Positions 8,906-26,447 of a stretch of 64,000 nt of DNA are shown in pieces. Both the position numbers and the translations under genes were made by a program. The notes under the pieces are model-generated. The model was given only the letters and a program-made list of their open reading frames with translations, had not been told where the DNA came from and searched no databases. Origin of the DNA: Candidatus Latescibacterota bacterium (lineage in GTDB: Bacteria; Latescibacterota; CBDEFO01); assembly GCA_965248755.1 (NCBI GenBank), contig OZ252149.1, forward strand, positions 1 to 64,000, given 5' to 3'. Numbering within the stretch: the stretch's first letter is position 1; every line of letters begins with the position of its first letter.

Positions 8906-9056
8906 GCAAGTAGGGAAGAGCCCCCGATCCCCAATTGACGCTATTGGGGACTCAATCACGGATAGAAAGAGGCACCCACTCTCCGCCTGTAAGGTGTCTA
9001 CTAATCTAAATAGCCATTAATTTAAAAGCCATAATCTTATCCAGACTGGAGAAGAT

Positions 9057-9524
9057 TTGATTCCGGGGACCTACATCCTGAACATAAAATTGTCCGAGAT
9101 CTTCGAAGCTGAGATAGGCAAATTAGGTAAGTTTCACTTTCCCACAGGAACCTACCTGTATGCAGGAAGCGCTCTCGGTGGACTTAAGATCCGACTCTTG
9201 CGTCACCTAAGGGGCGGATTTCTGCACTGGCATATAGACTATCTTTTGCTTTGCGGCCGAGTAGATGGCGCGTGGATTCTCGTATCCGAGCGAAGCTTAG
9301 AATGCCTTGTAGCCGACACTTTGTCGGAATACTTCTGGCAACCTGTTCGCTCATTCGGCTCATCTGACTGCAACTGTTTATCACATCTGTTCTGCGCCCC
9401 AGTAAATTATGATTTTATCGATGAAATCCCCCGACTGCTCAGCTTAAGCTTCTCTGATCTTCCCTCTCTATACCTTGCCCCCGACAGATTCAACGACACT
9501 GTTCTTGTCGGCGATAAAACATGA
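9057..9524 (+). CDS. GIY-YIG/Uri superfamily nuclease (DUF123)
   Basis: GTYIL...YLYAGSA, HWHIDYLL, FGSSDCNCLSHL. Confidence 0.82.
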   Translation: MIPGTYILNIKLSEIFEAEIGKLGKFHFPTGTYLYAGSALGGLKIRLLRHLRGGFLHWHIDYLLLCGRVDGAWILVSERSLECLVADTLSEYFWQPVRSFGSSDCNCLSHLFCAPVNYDFIDEIPRLLSLSFSDLPSLYLAPDRFNDTVLVGDKT

Positions 9525-9542: not shown

Positions 9543-11465
9543 GTGACAGATCAACTACCATTACTTAAGAGGATACCCCTAATCTGTGGATTCGGTATCT
9601 TTCTATCTTACAGGCTTGTTGGCATTACATACGCTCAAATTACAGACCTTTCAGAGGACGTATTAGACGCAGACAGTCAATCGGGATACGAAGAGTTAGT
9701 TGAGGTCTTAAGCGGTGGACGAATAGACCTCAACTTGGTACGGTCACAGGAACTTTCAATCGCACCTTTTCTGTCAGAGCAGGAGGCTCGGCTGATCCTG
9801 AGATTCCGCAGGACCAACGGACCGTTTGAAAGCACAGATGACCTCTATAAAATAGAAGGTCTGGGAAGAGACACAGCGGAAGCACTCTCCAGATACGGAT
9901 ACGTTTCCGGTATCGCAGCGGACGTTCCGCCTCAATCGGTCAAAAAACATCGTAAACTAATATCTCGTGTCAGGTTGATCACAAAAGTTTCCGAAGATGA
10001 ATCAGGTTCTTTTTTCAAGTTGTCCAGATTCTACCAAAGGACGGAGCTTTCATCGGGACAGGACATAGATGTCCTCATACTTTCTGAGAAAGATCCCAAA
10101 GAAGACAGCCCCACGGATTTTGCGGCAGGATACATAGAGATCAAAGACAAGTTCGATCTGGATAAAATTGTCCTGGGGAACTTGAGGCCTGGATTTGCTC
10201 AGGGACTGATATTTAGCCGATGGCAGTCGGTCTTAACGACTTCGGAGTCGGTCAAAAGGAAAGACTCCACATCCGTCGGCTATCGCTCCAGCTTCGAGAA
10301 CGGAGCCTTAAGGGGCGTATTCGCAAAGAAATCCCTCCCCAACTTCCAGGGAGCACTCTTTTTTTCATCCTCCAGAATGGACGCTGCTTTGGACAAAGAC
10401 GGAAACGTCACACGCATCGACGAAGACGGCGTTCACGTCTCTGATCTCCAGAAAGAAAGAAAAGACGCCCTTACGGAAAAACTGACAGGCGCAAGGCTAT
10501 CTTTTAAGGTAAATAAGGCGTTGAACTTAGGCTCTACCTTCTCCTTCTCCTCCTTCGATCCGCCATTTCAAAGGGATAACATGGAGAAAAGACGCTTTGC
10601 CTTCGAAGGGGATAAACTCCTGCTTTGGGGATGGGATTTTGATTGGAGAGGAGAGAAACTGAACCTATTCGGAGAATTTGCACTATCGGATGAACCGAGC
10701 GCCGCCTACATCTTGGGGGCAGTGGCCGACTTGGGAGAAGTAGACATCAGAGTGTTGGCCAGAAACTATGCTGCAGACTTCCACAGCTTTCACGGTTCGG
10801 CCTTCTCGTCCCTGGGCGGAGAAGTCAACAACGAAAAGGGCATATTCAGCGGGATAAGCTGGGATCTCAACAAAAGGACAAAGATAAGGGCTTTCCTGGA
10901 TCAATACAGCCGTCCCTGGCGCACCTTTAGCGTGCCGCTTCCAAGCCGGGGGACAAACTCAGGCGCTACAATTAAATATAAGCTCTCCAGAAAACTAAGA
11001 TTAAGCTTGCGCTTCAGATCAAAATCCAGCGAGAACTTTCAAGCAGAAATAGGCGTCAGGGATAAAAAGAAGAACAATCTGCGCGCAGACGCCGAATGGA
11101 GATTGCAGAAGAACTATCTTTTAAAGTGGAGAATCGAACTTTCGCGGGCTACGCTTAACGATGGGGAAAAGACCGAAAAAGGCATATCGGGCTTTGGAGA
11201 AATCCGCTTGAAGCCCTCGAAACTGCTCCGAGTCAATACCAGACTCACACTCTTTGATATCGATTCCCGCGATTCGGCGATATATGAGTTCGAGCAGGAT
11301 CTCCCGGGGCTCGGATTCCCAAGACAGTTGAACGGAAGGGGCATAAAGTGGTATTTAATAGGGAAATATAAGCTTAAATGGATGATCCTATCCGGGAAAT
11401 ACCGCATATTCAAACGAGAAACACCGATCCGTGAATTTTCCTTTCAAACAGATATAGTCCTGTAG
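9543..11465 (+). CDS. ComEA-like helix-hairpin-helix protein with probable outer-membrane beta-barrel
   Basis: IDLN...RRTNGPFESTDDLYKIEGLG HhH motif, EKDPKE, amphipathic beta-strand C-terminus. Confidence 0.75.
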   Translation: MTDQLPLLKRIPLICGFGIFLSYRLVGITYAQITDLSEDVLDADSQSGYEELVEVLSGGRIDLNLVRSQELSIAPFLSEQEARLILRFRRTNGPFESTDDLYKIEGLGRDTAEALSRYGYVSGIAADVPPQSVKKHRKLISRVRLITKVSEDESGSFFKLSRFYQRTELSSGQDIDVLILSEKDPKEDSPTDFAAGYIEIKDKFDLDKIVLGNLRPGFAQGLIFSRWQSVLTTSESVKRKDSTSVGYRSSFENGALRGVFAKKSLPNFQGALFFSSSRMDAALDKDGNVTRIDEDGVHVSDLQKERKDALTEKLTGARLSFKVNKALNLGSTFSFSSFDPPFQRDNMEKRRFAFEGDKLLLWGWDFDWRGEKLNLFGEFALSDEPSAAYILGAVADLGEVDIRVLARNYAADFHSFHGSAFSSLGGEVNNEKGIFSGISWDLNKRTKIRAFLDQYSRPWRTFSVPLPSRGTNSGATIKYKLSRKLRLSLRFRSKSSENFQAEIGVRDKKKNNLRADAEWRLQKNYLLKWRIELSRATLNDGEKTEKGISGFGEIRLKPSKLLRVNTRLTLFDIDSRDSAIYEFEQDLPGLGFPRQLNGRGIKWYLIGKYKLKWMILSGKYRIFKRETPIREFSFQTDIVL

Positions 11466-11647: not shown

Positions 11648-14072
11648 ATGAAGACTCTTGCATTAACATTTCTCCTCTGCTCCTTTATTCAACCCTTAAA
11701 GTCCGATGTTTACCCCGAAGTTCTCTTCGAGTGCGCCATTATTCCGAAGGAATATGGAGCAGGTAAGCCTCTAATAGAGGCGACAAATGAACAAAATGTT
11801 CTTATAATTTTTGCCAAGTTCGCCGGTGAAGCCCCTTTCGATAATACAGCTCCATCCTACGCAGAAGATATTCTAGATCCAGACGTTCCGGGCAGCCTCA
11901 GCCACTTCTACTCCACCATGTCCTCAGGGGCCTTCACGATCAAAGGCTCATTCCTGGGAAAGAGGTACTCCTCAAATTCGTAGGCCTCTGATTATGTTTC
12001 AGAGACCTCGGAGACTGGTTTCGGAGATTTCGGCCGTTTTGTGACCGAAGTCCTCAAGAATATCAACGAAGACCCATCGGTAGATTTCGGAGATTACGAC
12101 AACGATGGCCCCGACGGGATACCTAATTCTGGAGACGACGACGGATTTGTGGATTTCATCTTCATCCACTTGAGGAGCAGACCGATAGGGTTTATATCAA
12201 AAACAGCCACAGGGGTGGCGATTTTGGGCTTTCCCCATACCTTTACCACCAACGACCAATCGGCGTCAGGGGGCTTCATCAAGATCCTCCCGGATAATGG
12301 GGCAATTGGGCGCACGTTTAACTTTAGCCACGCTGTGGGAACTATGGCGCACGAATATGGACATAAGTTAGGTATTGGTGACTACTACGATACTTCTTTT
12401 CTAAGACCCAAAGATGATTCTGCGGGGATAGGAGCGTGGGGCATCATGGGCAGAGGCACCCTGGGCTGGAACGAGAATGACGGTCCCAATCCCTTCTGCG
12501 CCTACAGCTTAGAGCAGTTGGGATGGATAGGAAAAGACAACGACAGATTGATAGAATTAAACCAGGACATCTCAGGGCTGGTAGTAGAGCCTTTCTGGAG
12601 CGGCGGCAATATCTATAAGATCGCGCTAAGCCAGACAGAATATTTTCTGCTTGCCAATAGGCAAAATTCCGTCAACTTCTACGACCGCAACATCCCCGGG
12701 AGTGGACTCTTGATATGGCATGTAAATACTGCCTTTAACGGCAACTCTGACGAAAGTAGAAAAGTGCTCGATTTAGAATGCGCTGATGGTCTCTATTTCG
12801 ATGCCGGATTCCCGTTGGGGAAAGATCCCGACCGGATAAACGGAAAGGATAATCTGGATTTCTGGGCCCATGATGAGGAATATGCCAAAAACAGAGATCA
12901 GATTTGCGCGATCGGACGTGCTGGGCAGGGGGACAGACCCTCAAAGGTGCGAGCTAATCGTAAGGGGAAAGATGAAAGCTGACAACGTTCTATTCACATC
13001 TGGGGGACCTAATCCTGAAAAGGGCGATTGGTACGGGATAGTCGTCCGTCGCCAGGGGACTGTGACTTTAAGAAGCTCGACTGTGGAGTACAGCCAATTC
13101 GGACTGACGGGACAATTTCCTTCCGGGCTGTCGTTCATCAGTTCCGTTGTGCGAAACACCTCAAGGACCGGAATCGATCTGCAAAACAGCAGAAAACTTG
13201 TCGTAATTGTCGACTCGGTCGTAGAGGGCTCAGAAGGAAAAGGTGTCGTTATATCAGGCCCCACGTATGTCTTGATAAACAGCACAACTATCTCGGGAAA
13301 CGCCCAGGGAGGCATAGTCTTGAGCGATTGCAGCTTTGAGATCAAAAATAGCACCTTTTCAAAAAATGGAGAGGGAGCCGAAATTAGTATCCAAAGGGGG
13401 AAAAGCAGTATCATAGAGAGAAACAATATAAGCGGCAAAACAGGAGTAGAAGTCTCTCAAACCCCACTGCTCTTGATAAGAGATAATACTTTCCAGAACA
13501 GCAATGTCGGAATCTCTTCGGCTTCGTCGTCGACTGTAATATCTAGGAACACTTTTCTGAACAACAAAGAGGCGATAGTAATAGAAAGCGGAAAGGCTTC
13601 TGTGGAACTTAACGCCTTTGTCGACAACGGGAAAAATGTGAGAAATCTATCTAAATCACCGGTAAGCGCAAATTTCAACTGGTGGGGGACATCAGACCCT
13701 CAGGACATAAGGGACAAACTAGATGGTCCGGTGGACTGGAGCATATTTCTCATGTCAGATCCCACCGTGCTGGACATACCCTTTGCCTTAGAGCAAAACT
13801 TCCCGAATCCCTTCAATTCCACCACGATCATACGCTACCAGATTCCAGCCACAACCAGCATTACAAGGGGCGGTAGAGCACTGCTTGTCATCTATGACAT
13901 CTTAGGGCAGAAGGTCAAAACACTTGTGGATGAGGATCCTCTTCCGGGTTTTCACTCTGTCTTCTGGGACGCTAGGGACGATAAAGGGAGAAAGGTATCC
14001 AGCGGGGTCTATTTCTACAGACTAACTGTGGCGCAATTTTTGGATACCAAGAAACTCCTACTGCTAAAATAA
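11648..14072 (+). pseudogene. M6 (immune inhibitor A) metalloprotease with beta-helix and FlgD/T9SS-like CTD, disrupted
   Basis: HEYGHKLG zinc motif; in-frame TAG at 11981; frame-shifting junction near 12890; QNFPNPFN C-terminal domain. Confidence 0.8.
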
Positions 14073-14087
14073 GTCCCAAAAACGCTG

Positions 14088-14116
14088 TTGACAAAAGTCC
14101 ATTTTGATTTTATCTT
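14088..14116 (+). promoter_or_regulatory. Sigma70-type promoter for tadA-tRNA-Ser
   Basis: TTGACA-N17-TATCTT. Confidence 0.6.
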
Positions 14117-14148
14117 ACAGTTACGGAAAATCTGTGGTCCTTTTGTGT

Positions 14149-14610
14149 ATGACCTCTATGCATGAAAAATGGATAAGATCGGCTCTGATATTGGCAGAAA
14201 GGGCGCGTAAGGAGGGCGAAATCCCGGTCGGTGCTGTCGTGGTTATGGACGACGAGATTATAGGCTCAGGCTACAATCAAACAGAGCATAAGAACGACCC
14301 GACGGCCCACGCTGAGATATTAGCTTTACGGTCGGCTTCAGGGCGCCTGGGCTTTCAAAGGCTTTCAGGATGCTCTCTTTACGTTACCTTAGAGCCGTGC
14401 CCCATGTGCTCTGGTGCACTTGTGTTATCCCGAATAGACCGTTTAGTTTTCGGAGCGAAAGATCCCAAATCAGGAGCCTGCGGCTCTCTGTACAACTTAG
14501 TTCAAGACAAAAGACTAAATCACAGACTCAAGGTCACATCAGGTATTTTAGAACAAGAGTGCAGCCAGCTCCTCAAATCGTTCTTTAGGAGTATAAGGGA
14601 AAACAGGTAA
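14149..14610 (+). CDS. tadA: tRNA adenosine(34) deaminase
   Basis: EIPVGAV, DPTAHAE, TLEPCPMC, DPKSGA; start 14149 or 14158. Confidence 0.93.
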   Translation: MTSMHEKWIRSALILAERARKEGEIPVGAVVVMDDEIIGSGYNQTEHKNDPTAHAEILALRSASGRLGFQRLSGCSLYVTLEPCPMCSGALVLSRIDRLVFGAKDPKSGACGSLYNLVQDKRLNHRLKVTSGILEQECSQLLKSFFRSIRENR

Positions 14611-14614
14611 AGGT

Positions 14615-14704
14615 GGAGAGGTGCCTGAGCGGTTGAAAGGGGCGGTCTCGAAAACCGTTGTATCTTTGCGGATACCGGGGGTTCGAATCCCTCCCTCTCC
14701 GCCA
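14615..14704 (+). tRNA. tRNA-Ser(CGA)
   Basis: GGAGAGG acceptor, anticodon loop CT-CGA-AA, long variable arm, GTTCGAATC, CCA end. Confidence 0.95.
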
Positions 14705-14714
14705 ACCTTATATC

Positions 14715-14808
14715 GGAGAGATGACCGAGTTGGTCGAAGGTGCACGACTGGAAATCGTGTGTGGGGTTAGAAGCCTCACCGAGGGTTCGAATCCCTCTCT
14801 CTCCGCCA
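14715..14808 (+). tRNA. tRNA-Ser(GGA)
   Basis: CACGA-CTGGAAA-TCGTG anticodon arm, long variable arm, GTTCGAATC, CCA end. Confidence 0.95.
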
Positions 14809-14831
14809 TTGACCTCACGCGCCACTAGGGT

Positions 14832-15206
14832 ATGCTTAATAACATAAAAATAAGAGTCGGAAATGTCGACTTAGCAGCAGAACTCAACGATTCCAACACA
14901 GCCAAAATGATCTGGGAAGCCCTCCCTATCTCATCCTCTTTCAGCACCTGGGGAGATGAGATATACTTCTCTATACCTGTGGAAGCCGGTGAGGAGAATG
15001 GAGCTGAAGTCGTCCAATTAGGAGATCTGGGATACTGGCCCCCGGGTACTGCCTTCTGCATATTCTACGGCAGGACTCCCGCAAGCGTAGGTGATGAAAT
15101 ACGCCCTGCAAGTGCAGTTAATATCGTAGGCAAAGTTACAGTCGATCCAACTGTACTCAAAGACGCAGTAAAATCGATTTCGTCGATATCTATAGAGAAA
15201 GCCTAA
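14832..15206 (+). CDS. Cyclophilin-like fold protein (TM1367/DUF369-like)
   Basis: TWGDEIYF, GDLGYWPPGTAFCIFYGRTP. Confidence 0.85.
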   Translation: MLNNIKIRVGNVDLAAELNDSNTAKMIWEALPISSSFSTWGDEIYFSIPVEAGEENGAEVVQLGDLGYWPPGTAFCIFYGRTPASVGDEIRPASAVNIVGKVTVDPTVLKDAVKSISSISIEKA

Positions 15207-15464
15207 GATGCAGTAAACAGTGCAGAATTTTTTTGGAAGGCCGCGTGATCATTTTAATAAGTTGCGGAAATAACCTCTGTTTCCATCTGGTTCTTTTAGT
15301 AGATACTGCAGACAATGTTGCCGAAAGCCAGATTATATACTTCGTACCACCAGCGACAGTTTTGCTCTATGCTTACTCATCGTCAGATAGATGTCAAATC
15401 CGACAGAAGTCAGCTTCTGCATTTCCATTGCGAAATCATCTACAACTGTGAAAGTCCTTGGGGA

Positions 15465-15581
15465 CGAACAGTTCAGAAATTACTCGGCCATAAGGATGTC
15501 AAAACGACAATGATTTATACTCACATTCTAAACCTAAACCGTGGTGGAAAGGGAGTGATAAGTCCTGCTGACAATTTGTAG
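15465..15581 (+). pseudogene. intI: Integron integrase C-terminal remnant
   Basis: [38 protein letters not shown] matches IntI box II, catalytic Tyr and the NRGG..V.SP.D tail; the rest of the gene is missing. Confidence 0.85.
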
Positions 15582-15601
15582 GAAATGATGTTGAATTGGG
15601 G

Positions 15602-15771
15602 TTTTATACAGTCTGTTTATAATTCCTACAAAACTTATGATAATTATGACGTAACAGAATGATATTTTTAGTATTACAGGTTTTTTCTTAATATTTCGGT
15701 GGGGTCTTATATAGCTCAAATAGCTGTATATAGGTTCTTAGCATAGAAAACTGTATAAGCCCTAGTTGGGC
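15602..15771 (+). repeat. attI-like platform copy 1
   Basis: Just 3' of the intI stump; ends GTATAAG-CCCTA-GTTGGGC (core 15765-15771); TATAAT at 15618. Confidence 0.8.
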
Positions 15772-15947
15772 TGCGCTTTCTTGGCCCTTGCCAGAGAAGG
15801 GGATCTTGCTATTGACCAATCTGGCCATTATCGAGATGAATGTTGAAAGAAGATGACTTTTTGAGACATATTAAACTATCTCAACAATGGGGTTGCGTAA
15901 AATTATTCACTTAGACCCAATATTGTTTATAGCGAGGAGGTTGTACG

Positions 15948-17138
15948 ATGTCTAGTAATCGAGGTGTGGCTTATATAAAACCGGGGGTGGTTGAAGTTCA
16001 AAGTATAGACTATCCCAAATTAGTATTGGGTGATCGTCATTGTCAGCACGGCGTAATCTTGAAGATCATTTCCACGAACATTTGTGGGAGCGATCAACAT
16101 ATGGTTCGAGGCCGAACAACCGCTCCAGCTGGACTGATCCTGGGTCACGAAATTACGGGCCAGGTTATCGAGGCGGGACGTGATGTTGAATTCATCGAGG
16201 TGGGTGATGTTGTTTCGGTGCCGTTCAACATTGCTTGTGGACGGTGTTCTAATTGCAAGGAAGGCAAAACGGGCATTTGTTTGAACGTGAACCCGGCTCG
16301 CCCGGGTGCTGCTTATGGTTACGTAGACATGGGCGGCTGGGTCGGCGGTCAAGCCGAATATGTAATGGTCCCCTATGCTGATTTTAATCTGTTGAAGTTC
16401 CCAGACAGAGATCAAGCCATGGAAAAGATCAAAGACCTGACGTTGTTGTCAGATATTTTCCCGACGGGCTATCATGGGGCCGTGTCGGCTGGTGTTGGGC
16501 CAGGCACAATTGTGTATGTTGCCGGGGCCGGTCCGGTTGGTTTGGCTTGTGCAGCGTCTTGTCAAATGCTTGGCGCCGCGGTTGTCATTGTTGGCGATAT
16601 GATCCCTGAACGATTAGCGCAAACGCGTAGTTTTGGCTGTGAGCCCATTGATCTACGTAAAGATGCTACGCTGGCGGAGCAAATCGAACAGATTGTTGGT
16701 GTGCCAGAAGTAGATGCTGCGGTTGATTGTGTCGGCTTTGAAGCGCGTGGGCATGGTAGTGATGCACGCGTGGAACACCCGGCCACAGTCTTGAACTCAA
16801 TTATGGACGTTACGCGTGCCGGCGGAGCCCTGGGTATACCGGGTCTCTATGTTACTGGTGACCCTGGCGCAACAGATGACAACGCCAAAATCGGTCTGCT
16901 AGGTATCCGGATCGGGTTGGGTTGGGCTAAGTCACATCACTTTACTACGGGACAGTGCCCAGTTATGAGGTACCATCGACAATTGATGAATTGCATTTTG
17001 TACGACAAGATTGAGATTGCCAAGGCCACGAATGTAACCGTCATTTCGCTTGACGAATCAGTGCAGGGGTACAAGGACTTTGATGCCGGCGCAGCCAAAA
17101 AATTTGTCATTGATCCGCACAGTATGATTGCTGCATAA
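15948..17138 (+). CDS. fdhA: Glutathione-independent formaldehyde dehydrogenase
   Basis: NICGSDQHMVRGRT, GHE, CGRCSNC, AYGYVDMGGW, LSDIFPTGYHGA, GLGWAKS. Confidence 0.93.
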   Translation: MSSNRGVAYIKPGVVEVQSIDYPKLVLGDRHCQHGVILKIISTNICGSDQHMVRGRTTAPAGLILGHEITGQVIEAGRDVEFIEVGDVVSVPFNIACGRCSNCKEGKTGICLNVNPARPGAAYGYVDMGGWVGGQAEYVMVPYADFNLLKFPDRDQAMEKIKDLTLLSDIFPTGYHGAVSAGVGPGTIVYVAGAGPVGLACAASCQMLGAAVVIVGDMIPERLAQTRSFGCEPIDLRKDATLAEQIEQIVGVPEVDAAVDCVGFEARGHGSDARVEHPATVLNSIMDVTRAGGALGIPGLYVTGDPGATDDNAKIGLLGIRIGLGWAKSHHFTTGQCPVMRYHRQLMNCILYDKIEIAKATNVTVISLDESVQGYKDFDAGAAKKFVIDPHSMIAA

Positions 17139-17920
17139 TAAAAGTGACCGGCTTAGTCCAACTCGGACTGTGAAGAGGCTTGTTTTGGGCCTACTTGATT
17201 CGTAAGATATAACGGTTCGTCAAATGAACTATATAGTCCGTGAAAATAATTACTTACGACAATACAAGAATTCTTACGACTCATTTCATACTGCTATATA
17301 ACCAAAAATCAGGAGGCTACTTATGAGTCCGGACAAGTTGAGCGGTCAAGCGCCGTTTGTGTTTACACATCGAGAAGATTTATATAATCTCCCCTCAGCA
17401 GCAAAGGAACACGAGGTAAATTTGCATGGTGGTTTTGCTGTTGATACCCGAGATGGCTATGGACAGATATACTATGGCATGCCAGGTTGCGGCATTATGC
17501 GAATCGATGCAGATTTGCAGAAGCAAGACATCATTAATCTGCCAGACGAGTTGACACCGTTGAACTTTCATGGCACCAAGATTGGCGAATTTGATGGCAA
17601 CCGGCGACTTTTTCTGCCCGCGGACAATGATGAAATGGTCGTCATCCTGAGCTTAGAGGGTAAAGTCGATTTTGTTTTGCCGCGACCTGTCTTTGATGAA
17701 TACCAGGCACAAGAGGTACCCTACAAACCGACCGACACGGTACTGGTAGGCAATCAACTTTACATTGCTGATGGTTATGGTTCAAATTACATCACTTCTG
17801 CGGATGTAAACACCCAACAATGGACGGGTATTTTTGGTGGCAAGACCGATGACCCCGAGGAAAACGGTAAATTTGCGACGGCCCACGGGATCGACTTTAA
17901 TCCAATTCATCACCATCTAG

Positions 17921-19546
17921 CCCCCATTCGCCATATTAGACCCGAAAAATGGTTGTCAAAGTCGCCAGAACATGTTATATTACAATAAATAAGACTCATA
18001 AATGGCGGATAAATATTGATCATCCAGAGGGTGAAAGAATGAAAGTAGGTTTTGATGGAGGAATAAAGCTTGAATTTCATGGTGCAAAGGTGACATCAAA
18101 CGGTGGACTTCTTGCGTATCGTGACCTTGATTACGCACTGGGATTATTTGATTCGGTATCAGCGGTTTTTACCGATAAACGCACAGGCCGTAATATCCAA
18201 CATGATATATCTACTCTCCTGCGTCAATCGATATACAGCCGTCTTGCAGGATATGAAGATGTAAATGACGCCGAGCGATTATCCGTTGATCCCGTCATGC
18301 GAGCGATTACCGGAAAGAAGGACAAAGGCAGGCAAGCTGCCAGCTCCAACACGATAGGACGTTTTGAAACTGATATACTGACTCAGCATGACAATCTCAG
18401 AAACTTGTCAGATATCAATGGCAAGTGGGTTCAAAAAGCGATGAGTAAAACACAGCATCAACGAATCATTCTGGACATGGACAGTTCGGAGAGTCCGGTA
18501 CATGGCCAGCAGGAAGGATCAGCTTACAACGGTCATTTCGGATGTACCTGTTTTCATCCAGTGTTCTGCTTCAATCAGTTCGGGGATTGTGAAGGAGTCC
18601 TACTTCGCTCTGGTAATGTTCACAGTGCTGATCGTTGGAAGGAAGTTCTGGAACCGATCGTCAAGAGATACGAGAGCAAGAAGAATAGGAAATACTTTCG
18701 AGGCGATGCTGCATTCGCAAAGCCTGAGATTTATGATTATCTGGAGGGAAACGGCTATTTGTATGCCATTCGGCTTCCCGCAAATGAGATACTCTATGAA
18801 AAGATACGATACCTGCTGACTCGGCCAGTTGGACGACCGCCGAGGAAACCGATTGTATCGTTATATGAATTTCAATATAAAGCGGCCAGTTGGGATCAAT
18901 CGAGGCGAGTGGTCGCCAAGGTTGAATGGCACCAAGGGGAGTTATTCCCAAGAGTGGGATTTATCGTGACCAACATGAGCGCCAAGCCAGAAGGCGTGGT
19001 ACACTTCTACAATGGCCGTGGCAGAGCTGAGCAGTGGATTAAGGAGGGCAAGTATGCTCTGAACTGGACCCGACTCTCATGCAAGCGTTTCGTCTCCAAT
19101 CAGGTGAGGCTCTGGCTGTTTGTTCTGGCTTACAACTTGGGCAACTTCCTGCGACGTTTTGTTCTTCCGAAGAAAATCAAACACTGGTCACTACGCAGCC
19201 TCCTCGTGAAATTTATCAAAATCGGAGCGAAGATTGTCAGACACAGCGGATATATTACGTTTCAAATGGCTGAGGTTGGGATAGACAAGAGGTTATTTGC
19301 CGAAATATTATCCCGGATTGAACGATTGCGATGTTATTCTGTTTAAACTGCCACATTTTTTTGTGAGTCGATGGAGAGGTGTCTCTAATTGGAGGATTTA
19401 AACACAAAGAAAGTGATAATTCAGAGGAAAATACTATTTTAATTGAAAAAAGTACTTGTTGAAAAATGTAAAAGTGGTAATATTAATTCAGAAACAAGAA
19501 TGTATCGAAATATAATCCCTCATGAATGTGATATGGGGAATGTCGG
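17921..19546 (+). mobile_element. IS1380-family insertion sequence, copy 2 (1626 bp)
   Basis: Same TIRs as copy 1; TSD TCTAG at 17916-17920 and 19547-19551. Confidence 0.95.
17949..19346 (+). CDS. IS1380-family DDE transposase
   Basis: Identical to copy 1 except one residue (GERM vs GERI). Confidence 0.95.
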   Translation: MVVKVARTCYITINKTHKWRINIDHPEGERMKVGFDGGIKLEFHGAKVTSNGGLLAYRDLDYALGLFDSVSAVFTDKRTGRNIQHDISTLLRQSIYSRLAGYEDVNDAERLSVDPVMRAITGKKDKGRQAASSNTIGRFETDILTQHDNLRNLSDINGKWVQKAMSKTQHQRIILDMDSSESPVHGQQEGSAYNGHFGCTCFHPVFCFNQFGDCEGVLLRSGNVHSADRWKEVLEPIVKRYESKKNRKYFRGDAAFAKPEIYDYLEGNGYLYAIRLPANEILYEKIRYLLTRPVGRPPRKPIVSLYEFQYKAASWDQSRRVVAKVEWHQGELFPRVGFIVTNMSAKPEGVVHFYNGRGRAEQWIKEGKYALNWTRLSCKRFVSNQVRLWLFVLAYNLGNFLRRFVLPKKIKHWSLRSLLVKFIKIGAKIVRHSGYITFQMAEVGIDKRLFAEILSRIERLRCYSV

Positions 19547-20102
19547 TCTAGATATTGCTGACCGTCCCCATTCACGCATTCAGGTTCATGATGTAGATGG
19601 TCGCTTTGTTGCTTCACACAAACTCCCATCAGGGGCATTGTTGTGTGGGATTAGTTACCTTGAATATCAAGAACGCTGGTATGCCGTCATCGGTTGTCTC
19701 GACGACCCAGAGGAAGATCGTCCTGCGCCTATCTACATTATAGATGCAGAGACCTATGAACTTCTGTCTACCATTCGTCCGAAAGAGGACTTAGGGATCG
19801 AACTGGCTCAACACCTACACAATGTTGTTTTACACATTCAAGATGATCAACTCTATCTCGTTTGTCAGGCATGGGATCCTGGTCACTACTTTGTATTGCA
19901 GAACATTTAATCAACTCAGGACCAATATTTGTATTGGCAGGTTGGGTTGAGGAACGCCACGCAAAAGTGCCTTGGAATAGAAAAAACACGTAACAGTGCC
20001 TCAACCTGAAGACGTGAGGCAGCTTCGTTATTGAGGGCCGTATTAGCCGGAAGGGAGGAAGTCGGTGCGTGTTGTTATTATTAAGAATTATAGCAACATC
20101 CA

Positions 20103-20223
20103 GCCCAACCAGCGCGTCAAGCTGACGCCTCAAGATCGGCTTTTAGTATAGTTGTCTTATGTACTTTGAGGTGAATTTTAATTGAGGATACGGCGGGCGC
20201 AGCTTACGCGCAGGCCGTTCGGC
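20103..20223 (+). other. attC site (121 bp)
   Basis: R'' GCCCAAC ... R' GTTCGGC; arms GCGCGT(C)AAGCTG(A)CGCC / GGCGCAGCTTACGCGC with two extrahelical bases. Confidence 0.88.
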
Positions 20224-20349
20224 AAGATAATCGGAGATTCAAAGTACTATTTGCATAAGAAGCAAGAAAATGTCTATTTTAACTTAGTTAGTGTAATTGG
20301 TGAATATATTTGGATAGATCAATACATATTAAAAAAAGCTGACAAGTCG
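20217..20349 (+). repeat. Conserved non-coding 3' flank B, copy 1
   Basis: GTTCGGCaagataat...aagctgacaagtcg, repeated at 24091-24225. Confidence 0.85.
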
Positions 20350-20451
20350 GTACAACCACACTGCTCTAATCCATGTGTGGGATTTGAAAGCTTTTCAGGC
20401 GTTGGTTCTGTCCTGTCTTTTTCCCAGTTTATGGTTGCGGAAATAACCCCT

Positions 20452-20546
20452 CAGGTTTTCTCTTAATATTTAAGTGGGGTCTTATATAGCTCAAATAGCT
20501 GTATATAGGTTCTTAGCTTAGAAAACTGTATAAGCTCTAGTTGGGC
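20452..20546 (+). repeat. attI-like platform copy 2
   Basis: Near-identical to 15677-15771; ends TAAGCTCTA-GTTGGGC. Confidence 0.8.
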
Positions 20547-20573
20547 GTATGAAAAAAACACTGGCGGTTAATC

Positions 20574-20792
20574 ATGACACAACTTCTTGAGAAAGCCTTT
20601 GAAGAGGCGTCAAAGTTGTCAGAATTGGAGCAAAATGCTCTGGCCCGATGGTTGATTGATGAAATCATATCCGAGAGAAAATGGGAAAAAGCATTTGCTG
20701 GGTCGGAAGATGTATTAGATAAACTGGCGGATGAGGCGCTTGCGGAGCACGCACAAGGCAAAACAAAACAATTAGATATTAATCAGCTTTGA
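20574..20792 (+). CDS. Type II antitoxin (addiction module component)
   Basis: 72 aa, acidic, MTQLLEKAF...W...LADEALAEH; overlaps the downstream RelE-like gene. Confidence 0.75.
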   Translation: MTQLLEKAFEEASKLSELEQNALARWLIDEIISERKWEKAFAGSEDVLDKLADEALAEHAQGKTKQLDINQL

Positions 20793-21068
20793 TATCACAT
20801 ACAACGGAGCGTTTTCGTAAATTACTAACAGAGCCTGCCAAAGGAAACCCAAAGGCAGGCGAGAGAGGCTTATGCGCAGTTCAAAAAAGACCCTTATCAT
20901 CCGGGGTTACACTTCAAACGAATACATTCAAAGCGTCCGATTCATGCAGTGCGCATTTCAAGAGATTATCGTGCTTTAGGCATACAGCAGGACAGCGAAA
21001 TAATCTGGTTCTGGATTGGTTCACATTCGGATTACGACAAGATGTTGAAACGGCTAAGGCACGGCTAA
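20789..21068 (+). pseudogene. RelE/ParE-like toxin with +1 frameshift near 20835
   Basis: Corrected frame: DPYHPGLHFKRI...VRISRDYRALG...IIWFWIGSHSDYD; stop overlaps GGCTAAC. Confidence 0.82.
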
Positions 21069-21145
21069 CCAGGCACTTCACCGTACCACCGAGCACACCT
21101 GTTGAATGGTTTGGAGTTTTGGCATCAAAGTCTCATACCGCCCCC

Positions 21146-21266
21146 TTAACAGAACGATATTTTTAATATTACAGGTTTTTTCTTAATATTTCAGTGGGGT
21201 CTTATATAGCTCAAATGGCTATATATAGGTGCTTAGCATAGAAAACTGTATAAGCCTTAGTTAGGC
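21146..21266 (+). repeat. attI-like platform copy 3
   Basis: Ends TAAGCCTTA-GTTAGGC. Confidence 0.8.
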
Positions 21267-21284
21267 GCACATGGAGCCAGCCAA

Positions 21285-22037
21285 GTGACCCGGCAAGCTT
21301 TACCTGAAGGCACAGCTTTCCTCGATCTCGCGTTCCGCACCGAGGACGGTTGTGCGAGCGCAACGCGAGAAATTCTGCCAAGTCTCGGCAAGAAGGCACC
21401 TGAGTGTCATGAGAGGCTGGGAGACCTTCTCTCGCTGTTGTACCGAGGAGCCTGCTGTTTCTACGGGTGTTCGGAGGGCGACCACTTCGGTCAACATATT
21501 GCAGGACGTGTAGTTTCGCATTCGCTTGGATCGTACCGCTTGCTCTGTTCGGGCTATTACGACGAGTCTCTCGCACTATCGCGGAATCTCGGAGAGGTCG
21601 CGAATCTGTTCTGGTTGTTCGTTCACCGGCCGGAGGAGCTGGAACGGTGGCGTCAATCCGACAAGAAGACGCGAATTAAAGATTTCTCTGCTTTTAGGAT
21701 TCGCCATGTCCTCGAAAAAGAAGGCATCCCCATACCAATAGATGAAACGCGGTACGCGGCGCTTTGCGAGGTCGCCGTGCACGTTAGCCCGGACACGACG
21801 CCGCAGGCTCATAATCCCCAAGAAATCCCTACACTTGGGTTGGTCTTTCAGATGAAAGGTTTTTTGGCCTCGCTCAATGAACTCTCGCTCGCTACGGGCG
21901 TATGTGCGGCCAGCCTCGTTCCTCTCCTCACTCTTGACGGAAGGGAACAAGAACTGAAGGAGAGGTCTGTGTCTCTAGTTCGCGCGGTGGGTGGAATTGA
22001 TCTTTCATCCCCGCACACCAGAATAGGAGGCGTCTAA
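21285..22037 (+). CDS. Cassette hypothetical protein, possibly DUF5677/HEPN-like helical
   Basis: 250 aa, RNLGE and YAALCEVAVH motifs; stop codon inside R'' GTCTAAC. Confidence 0.6.
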   Translation: MTRQALPEGTAFLDLAFRTEDGCASATREILPSLGKKAPECHERLGDLLSLLYRGACCFYGCSEGDHFGQHIAGRVVSHSLGSYRLLCSGYYDESLALSRNLGEVANLFWLFVHRPEELERWRQSDKKTRIKDFSAFRIRHVLEKEGIPIPIDETRYAALCEVAVHVSPDTTPQAHNPQEIPTLGLVFQMKGFLASLNELSLATGVCAASLVPLLTLDGREQELKERSVSLVRAVGGIDLSSPHTRIGGV

Positions 22038-22412
22038 CAACGGCATGCAGCTGCCAGTCCTGCCTGTCACAGCCCTGGCATTGGGTGGTGTCTTGCGACA
22101 TGGTCCGATCTACCCTATCCCTGGTCCCATCCTTTGCGGGATGGTTTACACTTCAACAATTTGTACGAGTAGCGGCATTCGAGTGGAGAGGTGTAGGTTC
22201 CCGTCCGCTTGGTATGGTATTCAAGGGGCTTATCTAACGTATTGTAAGATAGCAAGATACGTGATGAGCCCCCATTTTTAATTGACTTTATTGGTTCTAT
22301 GTATTATTATGAGGTTATATGATTTTATACCACTTTTGATAGGCTATTGACACTATTTGGTCACCACTTGCACAGTTTCTCTTGACAGCCACTATTGTCT
22401 TTCTTATCTTCT

Positions 22413-22589
22413 TTGGCAAGTTTAAACAGTCTGTATATAATCCCTACAAAACTTATGATAATTATGACTTAACAGAGTGATATTTTTAATATCATAGGTT
22501 TTTTCTTAATATTTCAGTGGGGTCTTATATAGCTCAAATAGCCGTATATAGGTTCTTAGCATAGAAAACTGTATAAGCCCTGGTTATAT
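22413..22589 (+). repeat. attI-like platform copy 4 with candidate Pc promoter
   Basis: TTGGCA-N17-TATAAT (22413-22441); ends TAAGCCCTG-GTTATAT. Confidence 0.8.
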
Positions 22590-22632
22590 TTTTTAAGAAC
22601 TGAATTTAAGAATCTAATTGTATGATCTAATA

Positions 22633-22882
22633 ATGAACAAAAAGAAATTATTACTAAAAATACTTTCAGGATCAAAAAATATTAGATTTAATGAAGTAAG
22701 AACATGTGTGGAATCATTTGGATTTAATTTAGATCGTATTACTGGCAAGTCACCATATTTTCTCAAATCCAAAAGTTAAAGAATTAGTCAATATTCAAGA
22801 TGTTAAAGGAAAGGCTAAACCTTATCAAATTAAACAGTTTTTAAGTATAGTAGAAAAGTATAACCTTCAAATGGAGGATTAG
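22633..22882 (+). pseudogene. hicA: HicA toxin with +1 frameshift near 22747
   Basis: MNKKKLLLKILSGSKNIRF...; corrected TGSHHIF...NIQ...KAKPYQIKQ. Confidence 0.82.
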
Positions 22883-22884
22883 TT

Positions 22885-23112
22885 ATGAATGATTATCATA
22901 TCAATATTTTTTATAGTGAAGATGATGAGGGGTATATCGCAGATTTTCCTGATCTAGATCATTGCTCAGCCTTTGGTAATACACCTGAAGAAGCCTTACA
23001 TGAAGCATTAAAAGCCAAAAAGGCATGGATTGAGGTAGCAAAATCAAAAAATAAATCCATTCCAAAGCCCTGCTATAAAGCCGGTAATTTATCAAGTAGC
23101 GTAATTACTTAA
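22885..23112 (+). CDS. hicB: HicB antitoxin (extreme C-terminus probably frameshifted)
   Basis: YSEDDEGYIADFPDL..CSAFGNTPEEA...AW...IPKP. Confidence 0.88.
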   Translation: MNDYHINIFYSEDDEGYIADFPDLDHCSAFGNTPEEALHEALKAKKAWIEVAKSKNKSIPKPCYKAGNLSSSVIT

Positions 23113-23120
23113 AAATCAGA

Positions 23121-23180
23121 ATATAACAAACCCTATAAGCCGACGCGATAAACCTGCGCGGCTGATGCTCGACGTTCGGT
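23121..23180 (+). other. attC site (60 bp)
   Basis: R'' ATATAAC is the exact reverse complement of the cassette-start GTTATAT; R' GTTCGGT; internal arms AGCCG(A)CGC / GCGCGGCT. Confidence 0.82.
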
Positions 23181-23191
23181 GAATAGAGAAA

Positions 23192-24070
23192 ATGACAAAT
23201 AGTAACTCAATAATCAATTTTGGAGAACTTTCTAAACCTGCAACTGTTTTGATAGAAAAAATATCGGATGCTGTTGGAGGCTACTTCAAGCCTTATCAAA
23301 TTAAACGTGTTGCTAAAGCAGAAGGGAATGCAGATATAATAAAAGCACAGGCCCAAATAGATGTGACTGATATTCAACGACGGGCAATCAGTCGATTTGT
23401 CTTTGAAGAAGCAAGAAAGCAAGATAACATTGAAAAGATTACTGAAAAGGCCATTCCTCAATTAGAAGAATGTTCTGCTCCACAAAACGTGGAAGACGAT
23501 TGGATCATAAACTTCTTCGACAAATGCCGAATAGTCTCTGATGATGATATGCAGAAGCTCTGGTCGCGAGTCCTCGCTGATGAAGCAAATTCACCCGGCG
23601 CGTTCTCCAGAAAAACCGTCAACTTGTTGGCTGACTTAGATAAGAGCGATGCAGAGTTGTTTATACGCCTTCGCAGCTTCGGTTGGATGATAGGTGACAT
23701 CGTGCCGCTCGTGTATGACTTTCAGGACGAGATTTACAACCGCCACGGAATCAATTTCAGTTCTCTTGCTCATCTCGAAAGTCTTGGATTTGTCCAGATC
23801 AGTCAAATCTCAGAATTTCAGCGTTCGAAGTTGCCGAAGAAAGTTACTGTCTCCTACTACGGTAGACCGGTGGAACTAACGTTTCCCACGGACGCTGACA
23901 ATGAGCTGGACTTGGGGAAGGTGCTCCTAACACGAGCTGGACAAGAGCTCGCCCCCGTTTGCGGGTCCAAACCAGTCAATGGGTTCTTTGACTTCGTGTA
24001 CAACAAGTGGGCGAGTCAGTCTCTTGTGTCGAAGAGAGAAACCGAACAAGGCACTCCAGCGGACGGTTAA
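23192..24070 (+). CDS. DUF2806 domain protein (cassette)
   Basis: KPATVLIEKIS, KQDNIE, DDWIINFFD, MQKLWSRVLADE..PG.FS. Confidence 0.82.
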   Translation: MTNSNSIINFGELSKPATVLIEKISDAVGGYFKPYQIKRVAKAEGNADIIKAQAQIDVTDIQRRAISRFVFEEARKQDNIEKITEKAIPQLEECSAPQNVEDDWIINFFDKCRIVSDDDMQKLWSRVLADEANSPGAFSRKTVNLLADLDKSDAELFIRLRSFGWMIGDIVPLVYDFQDEIYNRHGINFSSLAHLESLGFVQISQISEFQRSKLPKKVTVSYYGRPVELTFPTDADNELDLGKVLLTRAGQELAPVCGSKPVNGFFDFVYNKWASQSLVSKRETEQGTPADG

Positions 24071-24097
24071 CGCCGGCGCTGAATTCAATCGTTCGGC
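24041..24097 (+). other. attC site (57 bp)
   Basis: R'' ACCGAAC is the exact reverse complement of the cassette-start GTTCGGT; R' GTTCGGC. Confidence 0.78.
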
Positions 24098-24225
24098 AAC
24101 ATAATCTGGGGATTCAAAGTACTATTTGTATAAGAAGCAAGAAAATATCTATTTTAACTTAGTTAGTGTAATTGGTGTATATATTTGGATAGGTTAATAC
24201 ATATCAAAAGAAAGCTGATAAGTCG
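24091..24225 (+). repeat. Conserved non-coding 3' flank B, copy 2
   Basis: Diverged direct repeat of 20217-20349. Confidence 0.85.
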
Positions 24226-24390
24226 TTGAATGAAGCGTCACAAGGGTTGCACCGAAAGACTGGATTCAAGCCTTATCAGTTATGTTGGAGAAATTGCTGG
24301 ATACCGGAAGTTTTTGATTTATTGACAGTAGTCAGAGAGAAGTGGGGACGACCCGTATGCTGTCTACTGTTTGCTGTCTACTTACTCAAG

Positions 24391-24466
24391 GGGGCAGTAG
24401 CTCAGTTGGGAGAGCGCATCCCTCGCACGGATGAGGCCAGGAGTTCGATTCTCCTCTGCTCCACCA
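24391..24466 (+). tRNA. tRNA-Ala(CGC)
   Basis: GGGGCAG/CTGCTCC acceptor with G3:U70, CATCC-CTCGCAC-GGATG anticodon arm, CCA end. Confidence 0.95.
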
Positions 24467-24477
24467 TATAATACGAC

Positions 24478-24751
24478 TGGTCGTGCTAGACGGGGAGATA
24501 GCGGTGCCCTGGTTCCCGCAATCCGCTACAGCGGGGTTTAATTCCCGAGTTGAGGCCCAACCGCTGTGAAAACGACCGGGGGAAAGCGGCGTTGAAGATC
24601 AGGTCCTGCGCAACGGGAAGCCGTTGAATCCCGTCAGGACCGGAAGGTAGCAGCGGTAGACGGAACTTGTCGTGTGCCGCAGGGCAACCTGGTTGGAGCT
24701 GGCTATCCCTGGAACGCTCAGGACGGGGGGTCGAAGGAGGGTGCACGACCA
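24478..24751 (+). ncRNA. ffs: Signal recognition particle RNA, long Alu-containing type
   Basis: TCAGGACCGGAAGGTAGCAG helix 8; terminal TGGTCGTGC/GCACGACCA pairing; directly upstream of dnaX. Confidence 0.92.
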
Positions 24752-24791
24752 TTCTTTACTTTTTGACTCGTAAACCGAGGCAACTGAAGTT

Positions 24792-26447
24792 ATGTCCTAC
24801 ATTGTAATGGCAAGGAAATGGCGCCCCTCCCTCTTTGAGGACGTGGTGTCCCAGGATCACGTGACAGCTACCCTCAAGAACGCTATAGCCTCTGAGAGAA
24901 TAGCTCACTCTTATCTTTTCTCAGGCCCAAGGGGAGTCGGCAAGACTACGACTGCCCGAATCCTTGCAAAAGCCGTAAACTGCGCAAGTGGGCCAACTCC
25001 TACTCCCTGTAACGAATGCACATCGTGCAAAGAAATAAGGGACGGCAGAAATCTGGATGTCCTTGAGATCGACGGGGCATCGAACAGAGGCATAGACGAG
25101 ATAAGGGAACTTCGGGAGACGGTGGGCTATGTCCCTATGCAGGGCAAGTACAAAGTCTACATCATAGACGAAGTCCACATGCTCACCCCCGAAGCGTTCA
25201 ACGCCCTTTTGAAGACATTAGAAGAACCTCCACCCCGCATAATGTTCATCTTCGCCACCACAGAACCGCATAAGATCCCTGCTACTATCCTTTCAAGGTG
25301 TCAACGGTTCGATTTCAAAAGGATACCCACCGAGGATATAGTCGAAACACTCAGGTCTATAGCCCAAGCTGAAGGCATAAACACAGATGACGATGTGCTT
25401 TTTCTCATTGCAAGGAAAGCCGATGGCGCCCTGCGAGACGCCCAGAGCCTCTTCGACCAAATCGTCTCCTTTGCGGGAAAGGATGTCTCCTTTGAATCTG
25501 CAAGAGAGATCCTGGGATTAATAGATAGAGATCTACTGTTCCATCTAACAGACGCTATGTCCTCAAAGGACGCCTCACAGGGACTCGGTTTAGTCTCCGC
25601 AGCCCTGGAGTCAGGGGCCAATATAGGAGAGCTTTTGACAGATCTCATAGAACACCTCAGGAATCTCCTCTTTGCCAAAATCGAGGGCGGGATGAGAAGT
25701 ATTGAGGGGACAGAGTCCGAAAAAGAAAGATACCAGGAAGCCTCCCGGGACTTCTCCGAGGAAGACCTTTTGAGGATGATCAAGATACTATCTGATCTTG
25801 AACTTACGATAAGCAGGAGTTCGCAACCCAGATTCAGGCTCGAAATGGCAATCGTTAAGCTTGTGCATCTGGAGTCCACGGTCCTCCTTAAAGACCTGCT
25901 CGAGAGACTGTCGAATCTGGAAACGAAGCTCTGTTCAGGTGGAATCCCACAAAGTGCTGAGCCGCCATCTGTCTCTCCTCAAGAAGACTTCTTCGAAAAT
26001 GCTCCTCCGAAAGCCCAAGGGCAACAGGAGATAACGGCCCAGGAGGAAAACCCCGAAGAACCAAAAGGAGATGTTGAGGGGGAGCCTATAGAGACAACCT
26101 TAGAAAATCTTCAGGACAATTGGGGCAAAGTTTTGGATAGAGTAAAAAAGAAGAGCATATCTCTTGGCACTTTTCTTTCTACCGACGGACGGCCAGAAAG
26201 TATAAGCGACGGTGTGTTGACCCTATGTTTCCAAAGTGACAACTCCTTTTGCGCAACTCAGGTCAAGAGAAAGAAGAAGACTCTGGAAGCTGTGCTGTCT
26301 GAAATATTCAGGCAAAATCCCAAGGTCCATTGTGTAATCGTGGAAAACCAAGAGGCTAGGGTTAAAGAAGAAGCCGATAACGACAACGTAGCCCTTCAGA
26401 ACGTTATGGAGATATTTGACGGAGAGCTGATGAGCTACGATCAATAA
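24792..26447 (+). CDS. dnaX: DNA polymerase III gamma/tau
   Basis: ARKWRP, GPRGVGKTT, IIDEVHML, SRCQRF. Confidence 0.97.
   Translation: MSYIVMARKWRPSLFEDVVSQDHVTATLKNAIASERIAHSYLFSGPRGVGKTTTARILAKAVNCASGPTPTPCNECTSCKEIRDGRNLDVLEIDGASNRGIDEIRELRETVGYVPMQGKYKVYIIDEVHMLTPEAFNALLKTLEEPPPRIMFIFATTEPHKIPATILSRCQRFDFKRIPTEDIVETLRSIAQAEGINTDDDVLFLIARKADGALRDAQSLFDQIVSFAGKDVSFESAREILGLIDRDLLFHLTDAMSSKDASQGLGLVSAALESGANIGELLTDLIEHLRNLLFAKIEGGMRSIEGTESEKERYQEASRDFSEEDLLRMIKILSDLELTISRSSQPRFRLEMAIVKLVHLESTVLLKDLLERLSNLETKLCSGGIPQSAEPPSVSPQEDFFENAPPKAQGQQEITAQEENPEEPKGDVEGEPIETTLENLQDNWGKVLDRVKKKSISLGTFLSTDGRPESISDGVLTLCFQSDNSFCATQVKRKKKTLEAVLSEIFRQNPKVHCVIVENQEARVKEEADNDNVALQNVMEIFDGELMSYDQ

Follow-up and report, generated by a model that had tools for sequence, protein, structure and literature searches.

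Textbook integrons possess one attI; where an array carries a second one, it is seen as a rare accident of clinical integrons belonging to classes 1 and 2. How, then, could one stretch of the chromosome of a Candidatus Latescibacterota bacterium have come to hold four attI-like sites in tandem, each with its own cargo? The stretch is part of the window analyzed here, i.e. the first 64 kb (64,000 nucleotides, nt) of a one-contig 4.54-Mb genome with 98% completeness (assembly GCA_965248755.1, contig OZ252149.1). The original prediction described it as a stacked multi-attI integron. The reading preferred here, which is given a probability of roughly 0.65, is that window 15.26–24.23 kb represents an integrase-less integron array, in which the recurring blocks are attI-type sites and in which units ending in an attC are mixed with units ending in a block.

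The recurring block as a probable attI-type site

By repeat search and alignment of the window, a non-coding block of 91–165 nt was found four times, each time on the + strand. With copy 1 (15603–15767) as the alignment reference, block 4 (22421–22585) is full length and 93% identical, block 3 (21147–21262) keeps 116 nt at ~94% identity and block 2 (20452–20542) keeps 91 nt at ~95%. The BLAST E-values of the four copies range from 1e-34 to 1e-81. Every copy terminates at the right in CTGTATAAG-N5-G|TT, the individual ends of the form GTATAAG-N5-GTT being GCCCTAGTT, GCTCTAGTT, GCCTTAGTT and GCCCTGGTT, and the shared consensus ...AAAACTGTATAAGC(C/T)(C/T)T(A/G)GTT. Beyond it the DNA is unrelated, as the similarity ceases at the GTT or at most 4 nt past it. 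The alignment thus confirms the repeat as first described, including the different cargo behind each copy and the private substitutions in each of the four blocks, which differ mutually by 5–7% and have unlike left ends.

The position of the block is that of an attI. It starts 22 nt past the stop codon of an intI remnant in the window, and the same spacing returns at the remnants at 212904–213179 and 291054–291161 of the genome, as well as in a contig of another species (L094). In the latter, an open reading frame (ORF) of 109 amino acids (aa) with its own start combines the first ~55 and the last 55 aa (96%) of P0007, an intact 338-aa Latescibacterota IntI. It is followed by the block, after which new sequence begins at ...CCCTAGTT|ATGT. 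Since the block lies 3' of the intI remnants, intI is read as being transcribed towards the block.

The right end behaves as a crossover point, with the G|TT of a GTTRRRY box at the end of the block and unrelated cassettes to the right. When all copies that keep the right end were pooled, the GTT stood at the predicted position in 76 of 93, and the heptamers after the blocks fit GTTRRRY (commonest: GTTAGGC 19, GTTGGGC 6, GTTAGAC 6, GTTAGGT 6, GTTCGGC 4 and GTTATGC 4). Column conservation in the 33 full-length copies is 80–100% along ~215 nt and collapses just after the GTT. The fold is not that of an attC: in full as well as minimal blocks only a local hairpin of 9–11 base pairs (bp) forms, the ends are unpaired and there is no R''–R' pairing.

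A comparison with a second genome of the genus (G001, hereafter the congener) points in the same direction. At six orthologous block loci the left flank and the block are conserved in all six, and at five of them the similarity between the two genomes stops between −2 and +16 nt from the block end; the sixth is conserved throughout. The left flanks at the dispersed orthologous loci are ordinary genes, e.g. for a prolyl-tRNA synthetase, short-chain dehydrogenases and an FG-GAP protein. Because the block lies 3' of intI remnants, lacks an attC fold, is followed by GTTRRRY heptamers and marks a break of synteny at its right end, it is assigned as the attI-type site of a Latescibacterota integron whose intI is co-oriented with the cassettes. 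The attI-like nature proposed at the outset is upheld by this position, by the G|TT crossover and by the cassettes with real attC sites that follow.

Within the consensus block, a palindrome TATACAG-A-CTGTATA, an inverted repeat TATACAGC-N7-GCTGTATA and one CTGTATAAG 7 nt before the crossover can be distinguished, and there are five CTGTATA-type motifs in total. These are candidate protein-binding sites, in a number comparable to the four IntI1 sites of attI1. The pattern CTGTATAWAR occurs 4 times in the window versus 0.36 expected; this count is descriptive only, as the pattern misses the variant beside the crossover. A second crossover inside the block (CAGG|TT), considered on account of the left end of block 2 and of 9872–9914 in the congener locus L036, was rejected: the L036 case is an internal deletion that keeps the terminal AGTT, and left ends are not piled up at that point.

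The block is not specific to this locus. BLAST returned 13 matches in the genome, namely the four of the array, seven others with the right end (184081, 213367, 290882, 380799, 1397448, 3502078 and 3679331), one without it (2460642) and one fragment of 39 nt; with a longer query, two of the genome copies extend left into intI coding sequence. The congener contains 20 matches, including clusters of five and of two. Across the phylum the block was found in 9 of 168 genomes, all belonging to two families. An exact 18-mer from the block retrieved 62 metagenome stretches, of which 55 were blocks by inspection and 7 were chance matches. A short form of the block, without ~90 nt between two TGGGGT repeats, was seen in two different families (L024, G031:C317:600-665, and L039, 3918–4013).

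Cassettes, attC sites and the absent integrase

From left to right, the array consists of the following parts.

15257–15464, + strand: left edge of the variable region; non-coding, its first 57 nt recurring in internal units of the congener
15465–15581, + strand: C-terminal intI remnant, the last 38 codons and the stop, co-oriented with the cassettes
15603–15767, + strand: block 1, an attI-type site of full length whose crossover G is position 15765
15766–20223, + strand: cassette 1, with a zinc-dependent alcohol dehydrogenase (ADH)-like gene, a gene split by an insertion sequence (IS) and a 121-nt attC
20218–20542, + strand: non-coding unit ending in block 2, composed of a D2 repeat with extension (20218–20451) joined to the block's final 91 nt (20452–20542)
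20543–21146, + strand: cargo after block 2, two small overlapping ORFs (20574–20792; 20789 onward) in a toxin-antitoxin-like layout
21147–21262, + strand: block 3, left-truncated attI-type site of 116 nt
21261–22053, + strand: ordinary cassette at block 3, with a 250-aa ORF (21285–22037) and the left half of an attC (R'' GTCTAAC, 22032–22053)
22054–22420, + strand: filler rich in repeats that separates the cut attC from block 4, with pieces recurring at 647597, 1623435, 1985231 and 2460596
22421–22585, + strand: block 4, an attI-type site of full length that lacks an intI remnant
22584–23180, + strand: HicB-like antitoxin cassette, with the gene at 22885–23112 (Pfam HicB_lk_antitox) and a 60-nt attC at 23121–23180
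23175–24097, + strand: DUF2806 cassette, with the gene at 23192–24070 (Pfam DUF2806, E 3e-38) and a 57-nt attC at 24041–24097
24092–24227, + strand: terminal D2 repeat, which passes uninterrupted into the conserved right flank

The array contains three attC sites (20103–20223, 23121–23180 and 24041–24097), and a fourth is completed in a population variant described below. In DNA folding, 20103–20223 (−19 to −20 kcal/mol) and 24041–24097 (−11.7 to −12.6 kcal/mol) form long hairpins with paired ends; 23121–23180 folds less cleanly. The three predicted reverse-complement pairs between the opening heptamer of a cassette and its closing R'' are all present in the sequence: GTTGGGC (15765–15771) with GCCCAAC (20103–20109), GTTATAT (22583–22589) with ATATAAC (23121–23127), and GTTCGGT (23174–23180) with ACCGAAC (24041–24047). 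The home-made attC scanners were unspecific: a first one found nothing, and later ones gave 2–10 matches per 13 kb in control regions. They were not used for counts, confirmed only 20103–20223 and 24041–24097, and hinted at hairpins 3' of intI in locus L047.

In cassette 1, the ADH-like gene occupies 15948–17138 (Pfam ADH_N). One sample, probably the source sample, is represented by short-read contigs from four runs; these differ from the window at ~40 positions in 16008–17160, and the depth there is 7–24 versus ~4–10 in the flanks. The sample hence contains a diverged copy of the ADH-like cassette gene at higher abundance. The second gene of the cassette is split into 17323–17988 and 19443–19910 by a 1.63-kb IS1380-family element (17918–19547) encoding a 465-aa transposase (Pfam DDE_Tnp_1_4), of which the genome contains ~60 near-identical copies.

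The ORFs behind block 2 gave no match in a Pfam search, and their segment closes with a 13-nt fragment of an IS terminus (21134–21146). The sequence of this flank, CATACCGCCCCC, corresponds to the left terminus of an IS of 1267 nt. The element has two ORFs and 69 genomic copies of more than 1 kb. One of these (G000 289302–290621) breaks the gene after the block at 290882, and this insertion is absent in the congener.

The 250-aa ORF behind block 3 has a weak Pfam match to DUF5677. In a co-occurring population variant (runs X2 and X3, depths 3.5 and 11.3), 22053 is joined to 24090 via 28 nt, and 22054–24089, i.e. block 4 and two cassettes, is missing. The 28 nt complete a canonical 60-nt attC for this ORF and thereby identify it as a normal cassette with block 3 as its insertion site. 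The left flank of block 4 is shared with the genome copy at 2460596–2460744 and with congener locus L042.

An integrase to serve these sites was sought with TIGR02249, whose cut-off of 265 bits was taken as the criterion for an intact integron integrase. The window contains only the last 38 codons of intI, covering TIGR02249 positions 280–315 with 46.8 bits (15465–15578) and being 89.5% identical to residues 303–338 of P0007. Two other remnants were located in the genome (TIGR02249 224–315 at 212904–213179 and 269–304 at 291054–291161). In the complete genome no intI exceeds the cut-off, the best score being 117.4 bits, and in the congener the best score is 120 bits. The complete, functional multi-platform integron that had been envisaged is thus not what the genome contains.

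The intact IntI proteins P0001–P0009 are 78–82% identical to the window remnant, and for the nearest intact intI genes of the 168 genomes the identity to P0007 does not exceed 69%. No block was found downstream of the intact IntI genes G041:C482, G015:C39 and G008:C137. At another locus (L002, G000 3679331–3679525, − strand) a prolyl-tRNA synthetase gene is fused to the last 9 nt of intI including the stop, followed by the block, and this junction is shared with the congener.

How the blocks could have multiplied

The congener offers a view of the same locus in a different state. Its locus L036 has the same flanks (window 13000–15256 and 24089–25998, 95%; the latter matches L036 14975–16870 at 94.6%) and contains five blocks with different cargo. 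The synteny ceases at window 15256, after which the left-edge segment 15261–15317 reappears inside L036, at 9007–9065 and 12826–12882. Likewise, window 20214–20451 matches L036 8786–9024 and 12606–12843 at 95%, where an intI remnant and a full block follow.

Together, these matches outline a recurring unit, present behind three different attC sites and beginning exactly at G|TTCGGC. It comprises a 238-nt non-coding stretch (D2 and its extension), the left-edge sequence of the integron and an intI stub, and it ends at the G|TT of a block. The units at window 20218–20542 and at L036 8786–9320 and 12606–13137 have G|TT on both sides, which are the bounds of a delta-attI-type cassette; the same applies between blocks to window 20543–21262 and 21261–22585. 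Such a unit looks like what an attI-bearing circle integrated into an attC would leave behind. Circular junctions were not seen in the short-read contigs examined. Of the two origins that had been suggested for the iteration, the arrival of an intI-attI unit agrees with 20218–20542 and its two congener copies, bounded by G|TT and placed after three different attC sites, whereas a design against the expression gradient finds no support.

The D2 repeat itself is non-coding and AT-rich, and always starts at the G|TT of an attC (G|TTCGGCAA...). Its copies lie at window 20218–20349 and 24092–24227 and at G000 3676964–3677065 and 3677608–3677707. The terminal copy of the window (92% identical to 20216–20349) runs into the conserved tRNA-Ala flank in both species. 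D2 may be the sequence that originally abutted attI.

All block copies are left-truncated versions of a single unit made up of the intI 3' end and the block. The most fitting explanation for their ragged left ends is erosion in place. This is preferred because one orthologous locus retains 130 nt in one species versus at least 208 nt in the other, because left-terminus fragments of the 1267-nt IS abut copy 3 (21134–21146) and the copy at 1397621, and because internal deletions differ among block-ended units. A retro-element-like 5' truncation, considered for the nested left ends, was dropped on account of the unequal retention and the IS fragments. A duplicated cargo in L036 (4540–5151 and 9912–10522) was also set aside as proof of mobility, as its right ends are degenerate (GTC, ATT) and the block at its left is deleted, which makes it weakly informative.

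The following history is proposed. In an integron of this type, intI is transcribed towards the cassettes, which places attI just 3' of intI. The block would be a double-stranded attI-type site of ~165 nt, rich in CTGTATA(A/T)AG and crossing over at its terminal G|TT. Ordinary attC cassettes alternate in the array with block-ended units, which would be attI-type or delta-attI-type cassettes. A P0007-type integrase, either a copy since lost or one from elsewhere, would have recombined attI-bearing segments with attC sites and thereby put further attI copies inside the array. Cassettes would then have inserted at the added copies. Later deletions and IS activity would have removed intI and eroded the left sides, sparing the part proximal to the crossover. 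Without an integrase, the otherwise unstable tandem arrangement would be frozen. Integrase binding, this order of events and a past activity in trans are inferred.

Several observations weigh against this account. An intact cognate intI next to a block was found neither among the 55 real metagenome copies (62 loci) nor among all genome copies; the intI remnants beside the metagenome and genome blocks are C-terminal and at most 90 aa long. Among block-bearing genomes just one intact IntI is present (G041:C482); it belongs to a different type and is not followed by a block. The assignment as attI hence leans on adjacency to remnants and not on a working platform, and the persistence of the block in two families without a cognate integrase could mean that it has another function. 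In the window, the segments after blocks 2 and 3 end without a complete attC. Nor does the account explain the junction at 20350–20436 in the D2 unit and its relation to the outer ends of the array. Finally, the short-read contigs end inside each block, and none crosses a whole block.

A bolder extension can be put forward only tentatively and is rather unlikely to be true. In this 'distributed integron', attI instead of attC would be the general self-propagating site. An intI-attI module, and later attI with its cargo, would move as a cassette, leaving at least ten integrase-less landing pads beside housekeeping genes around the chromosome; these would still be served in trans by a P0007-type integrase that some strains or mobile DNA would carry.

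It is more doubtful still that the locus is a functional stacked integron, in which each attI is a currently usable insertion point with its own promoter, relieving the expression gradient along the array. The four attI-type sites with different cargo in one array would suit such a design, as would the recurrence of the arrangement, with five blocks and other cargo, at the syntenic congener locus. At the left edge of block 4 there is also a promoter-like TTGGCA-17-TATAAT (11/12 positions, 22413–22441). However, half of this site derives from the private flank of block 4, it is absent from the other copies, and the conserved right part of the block gave weak promoter matches only. Over the whole region the promoter scan gave 29 sites versus 18.2 ± 4.4 in shuffled sequences. 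A promoter in each platform, as had been proposed along with the avoidance of an expression gradient, thus finds nothing consistent in the conserved part. The functional design also conflicts with the missing intact intI and with the stability of the arrangement. According to one report (PMC12901181), attI1-ORF-attI1 was excised at ~100% in a class 1 model. By analogy, tandem full-length blocks would be stable only without an active integrase, so that their stability argues for inactivity.

Remaining explanations and known systems

Could the blocks instead be a homogeneous, lineage-specific attC family like the Vibrio cholerae repeats (VCRs) of Vibrio, each forming the 3' end of the preceding cassette? 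Block-ended units do have a G|TT at either side and turn up in different contexts, and the block is conserved over its whole length, as in such families. Yet it lacks a RYYYAAC partner and an end-to-end hairpin, and it keeps a fixed 22-nt spacer to the intI remnants. In addition, the dispersed loci are anchored on the left to conserved housekeeping flanks and vary on the right, which is the behavior of an attI. This explanation is considered very improbable.

Little credit can be given to the idea that the block is unrelated to integrons, i.e. the end of an IS or of a miniature inverted-repeat transposable element (MITE), or a regulatory element that happens to sit in an array. Only the right end of the block is constant, namely GTT followed by RRRY in 76 of 93 copies, and the repeat search, which did not extend to target duplications, listed no pair of inverted repeats at the ends of the block. 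The block is also linked to intI remnants, and no Rfam family matches it. These findings outweigh what speaks for such a repeat: the 13 dispersed genome matches with ragged left ends, the abundance of IS in the genome (~60 copies of one, 69 of another) and the absence of the cognate integrase.

Least credible is an assembly artefact, in which a repeat has been collapsed or chimerically joined: the source is a metagenome-assembled genome and no short-read contig spans a block, but the copies differ by 5–7% and in their left ends, every junction between unique DNA and block matches independent per-run contigs with 0 differences (matched intervals 15000–15647, 15738–16177, 19519–20502, 20488–21185, 21187–22201 and 22552–24420), and this architecture is also present, with the same flanks, in another genome of the genus. 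Because the contigs stop within the blocks, support for the block order comes from the one-contig assembly and from the congener architecture.

How does the array compare with systems already described? A cluster of attC sites lacking integron integrase (CALIN) contains, as usually defined, no attI. The present array resembles a CALIN as an array of attC cassettes without a functional integrase nearby, but differs in keeping four attI-type sites and an intI stub. The term CALIN itself appears in PMC7923331.

With the VCRs (mentioned in PMC12901181) it shares one conserved repeat that punctuates the array and ends at G|TT. Unlike a VCR, the block has no R''/L'' arm or hairpin and derives from the integrase-proximal site.

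The closest relatives are the delta-attI-type cassettes, which are known in integrons of classes 1 and 2 and are recombined by IntI1. By the count of the same report they are rare, 110 cassettes in 1,742 integrons, with 14–18 nt of attI kept, once 244 nt and once the full 65 bp (PMC12901181). The rule that a standard integron has one attI, on which the prediction was built, therefore holds as a rule, with these cassettes as known exceptions. The likeness lies in the 3' site, where an attC is replaced by a left-truncated attI whose last base is the crossover G, in the variable lengths of attI kept and in the coexistence with attC cassettes in one array; the known set even includes one ORF with a whole attI on both sides. 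In the present lineage, however, 45 to more than 200 nt are kept, four such sites stand in one array, and there are 13 matches per genome at many chromosomal loci. The integron here is chromosomal, co-oriented and without an integrase.

Co-oriented ('atypical') intI genes are known from the chromosomal integrons of Treponema denticola and relatives (PMC3607928). The orientation towards the cassettes is shared with these integrons; in contrast to them, intI is here reduced to stubs and the site is multiplied.

A repeated attI in one array is thus uncommon but previously described, and it is unusually widespread in this lineage. The locus differs from known cases in scale, in the length of attI kept, in its chromosomal spread and in the phylum. 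With it, the second-attI phenomenon extends to a phylum that is environmental and uncultured, where the attI copies are long and occur in two families and dozens of metagenome contigs. Since the left ends range continuously down to ~45 nt, the copies form a natural data set for the minimal length of attI, as well as for the cassette-like movement of attI-ended units and the fate of arrays after integrase loss. They also supply a candidate for the barely defined attI of a co-oriented integron class, together with P0007 as a matching intact integrase sequence. The interest is chiefly for integron specialists, and the locus is otherwise ordinary.

The array is flanked on the left by two tRNA-Ser genes (window 14615–14808) and a cyclophilin-like gene, and on the right by tRNA-Ala (24391–24466), the large RNA of the signal recognition particle (24481–24748) and dnaX.

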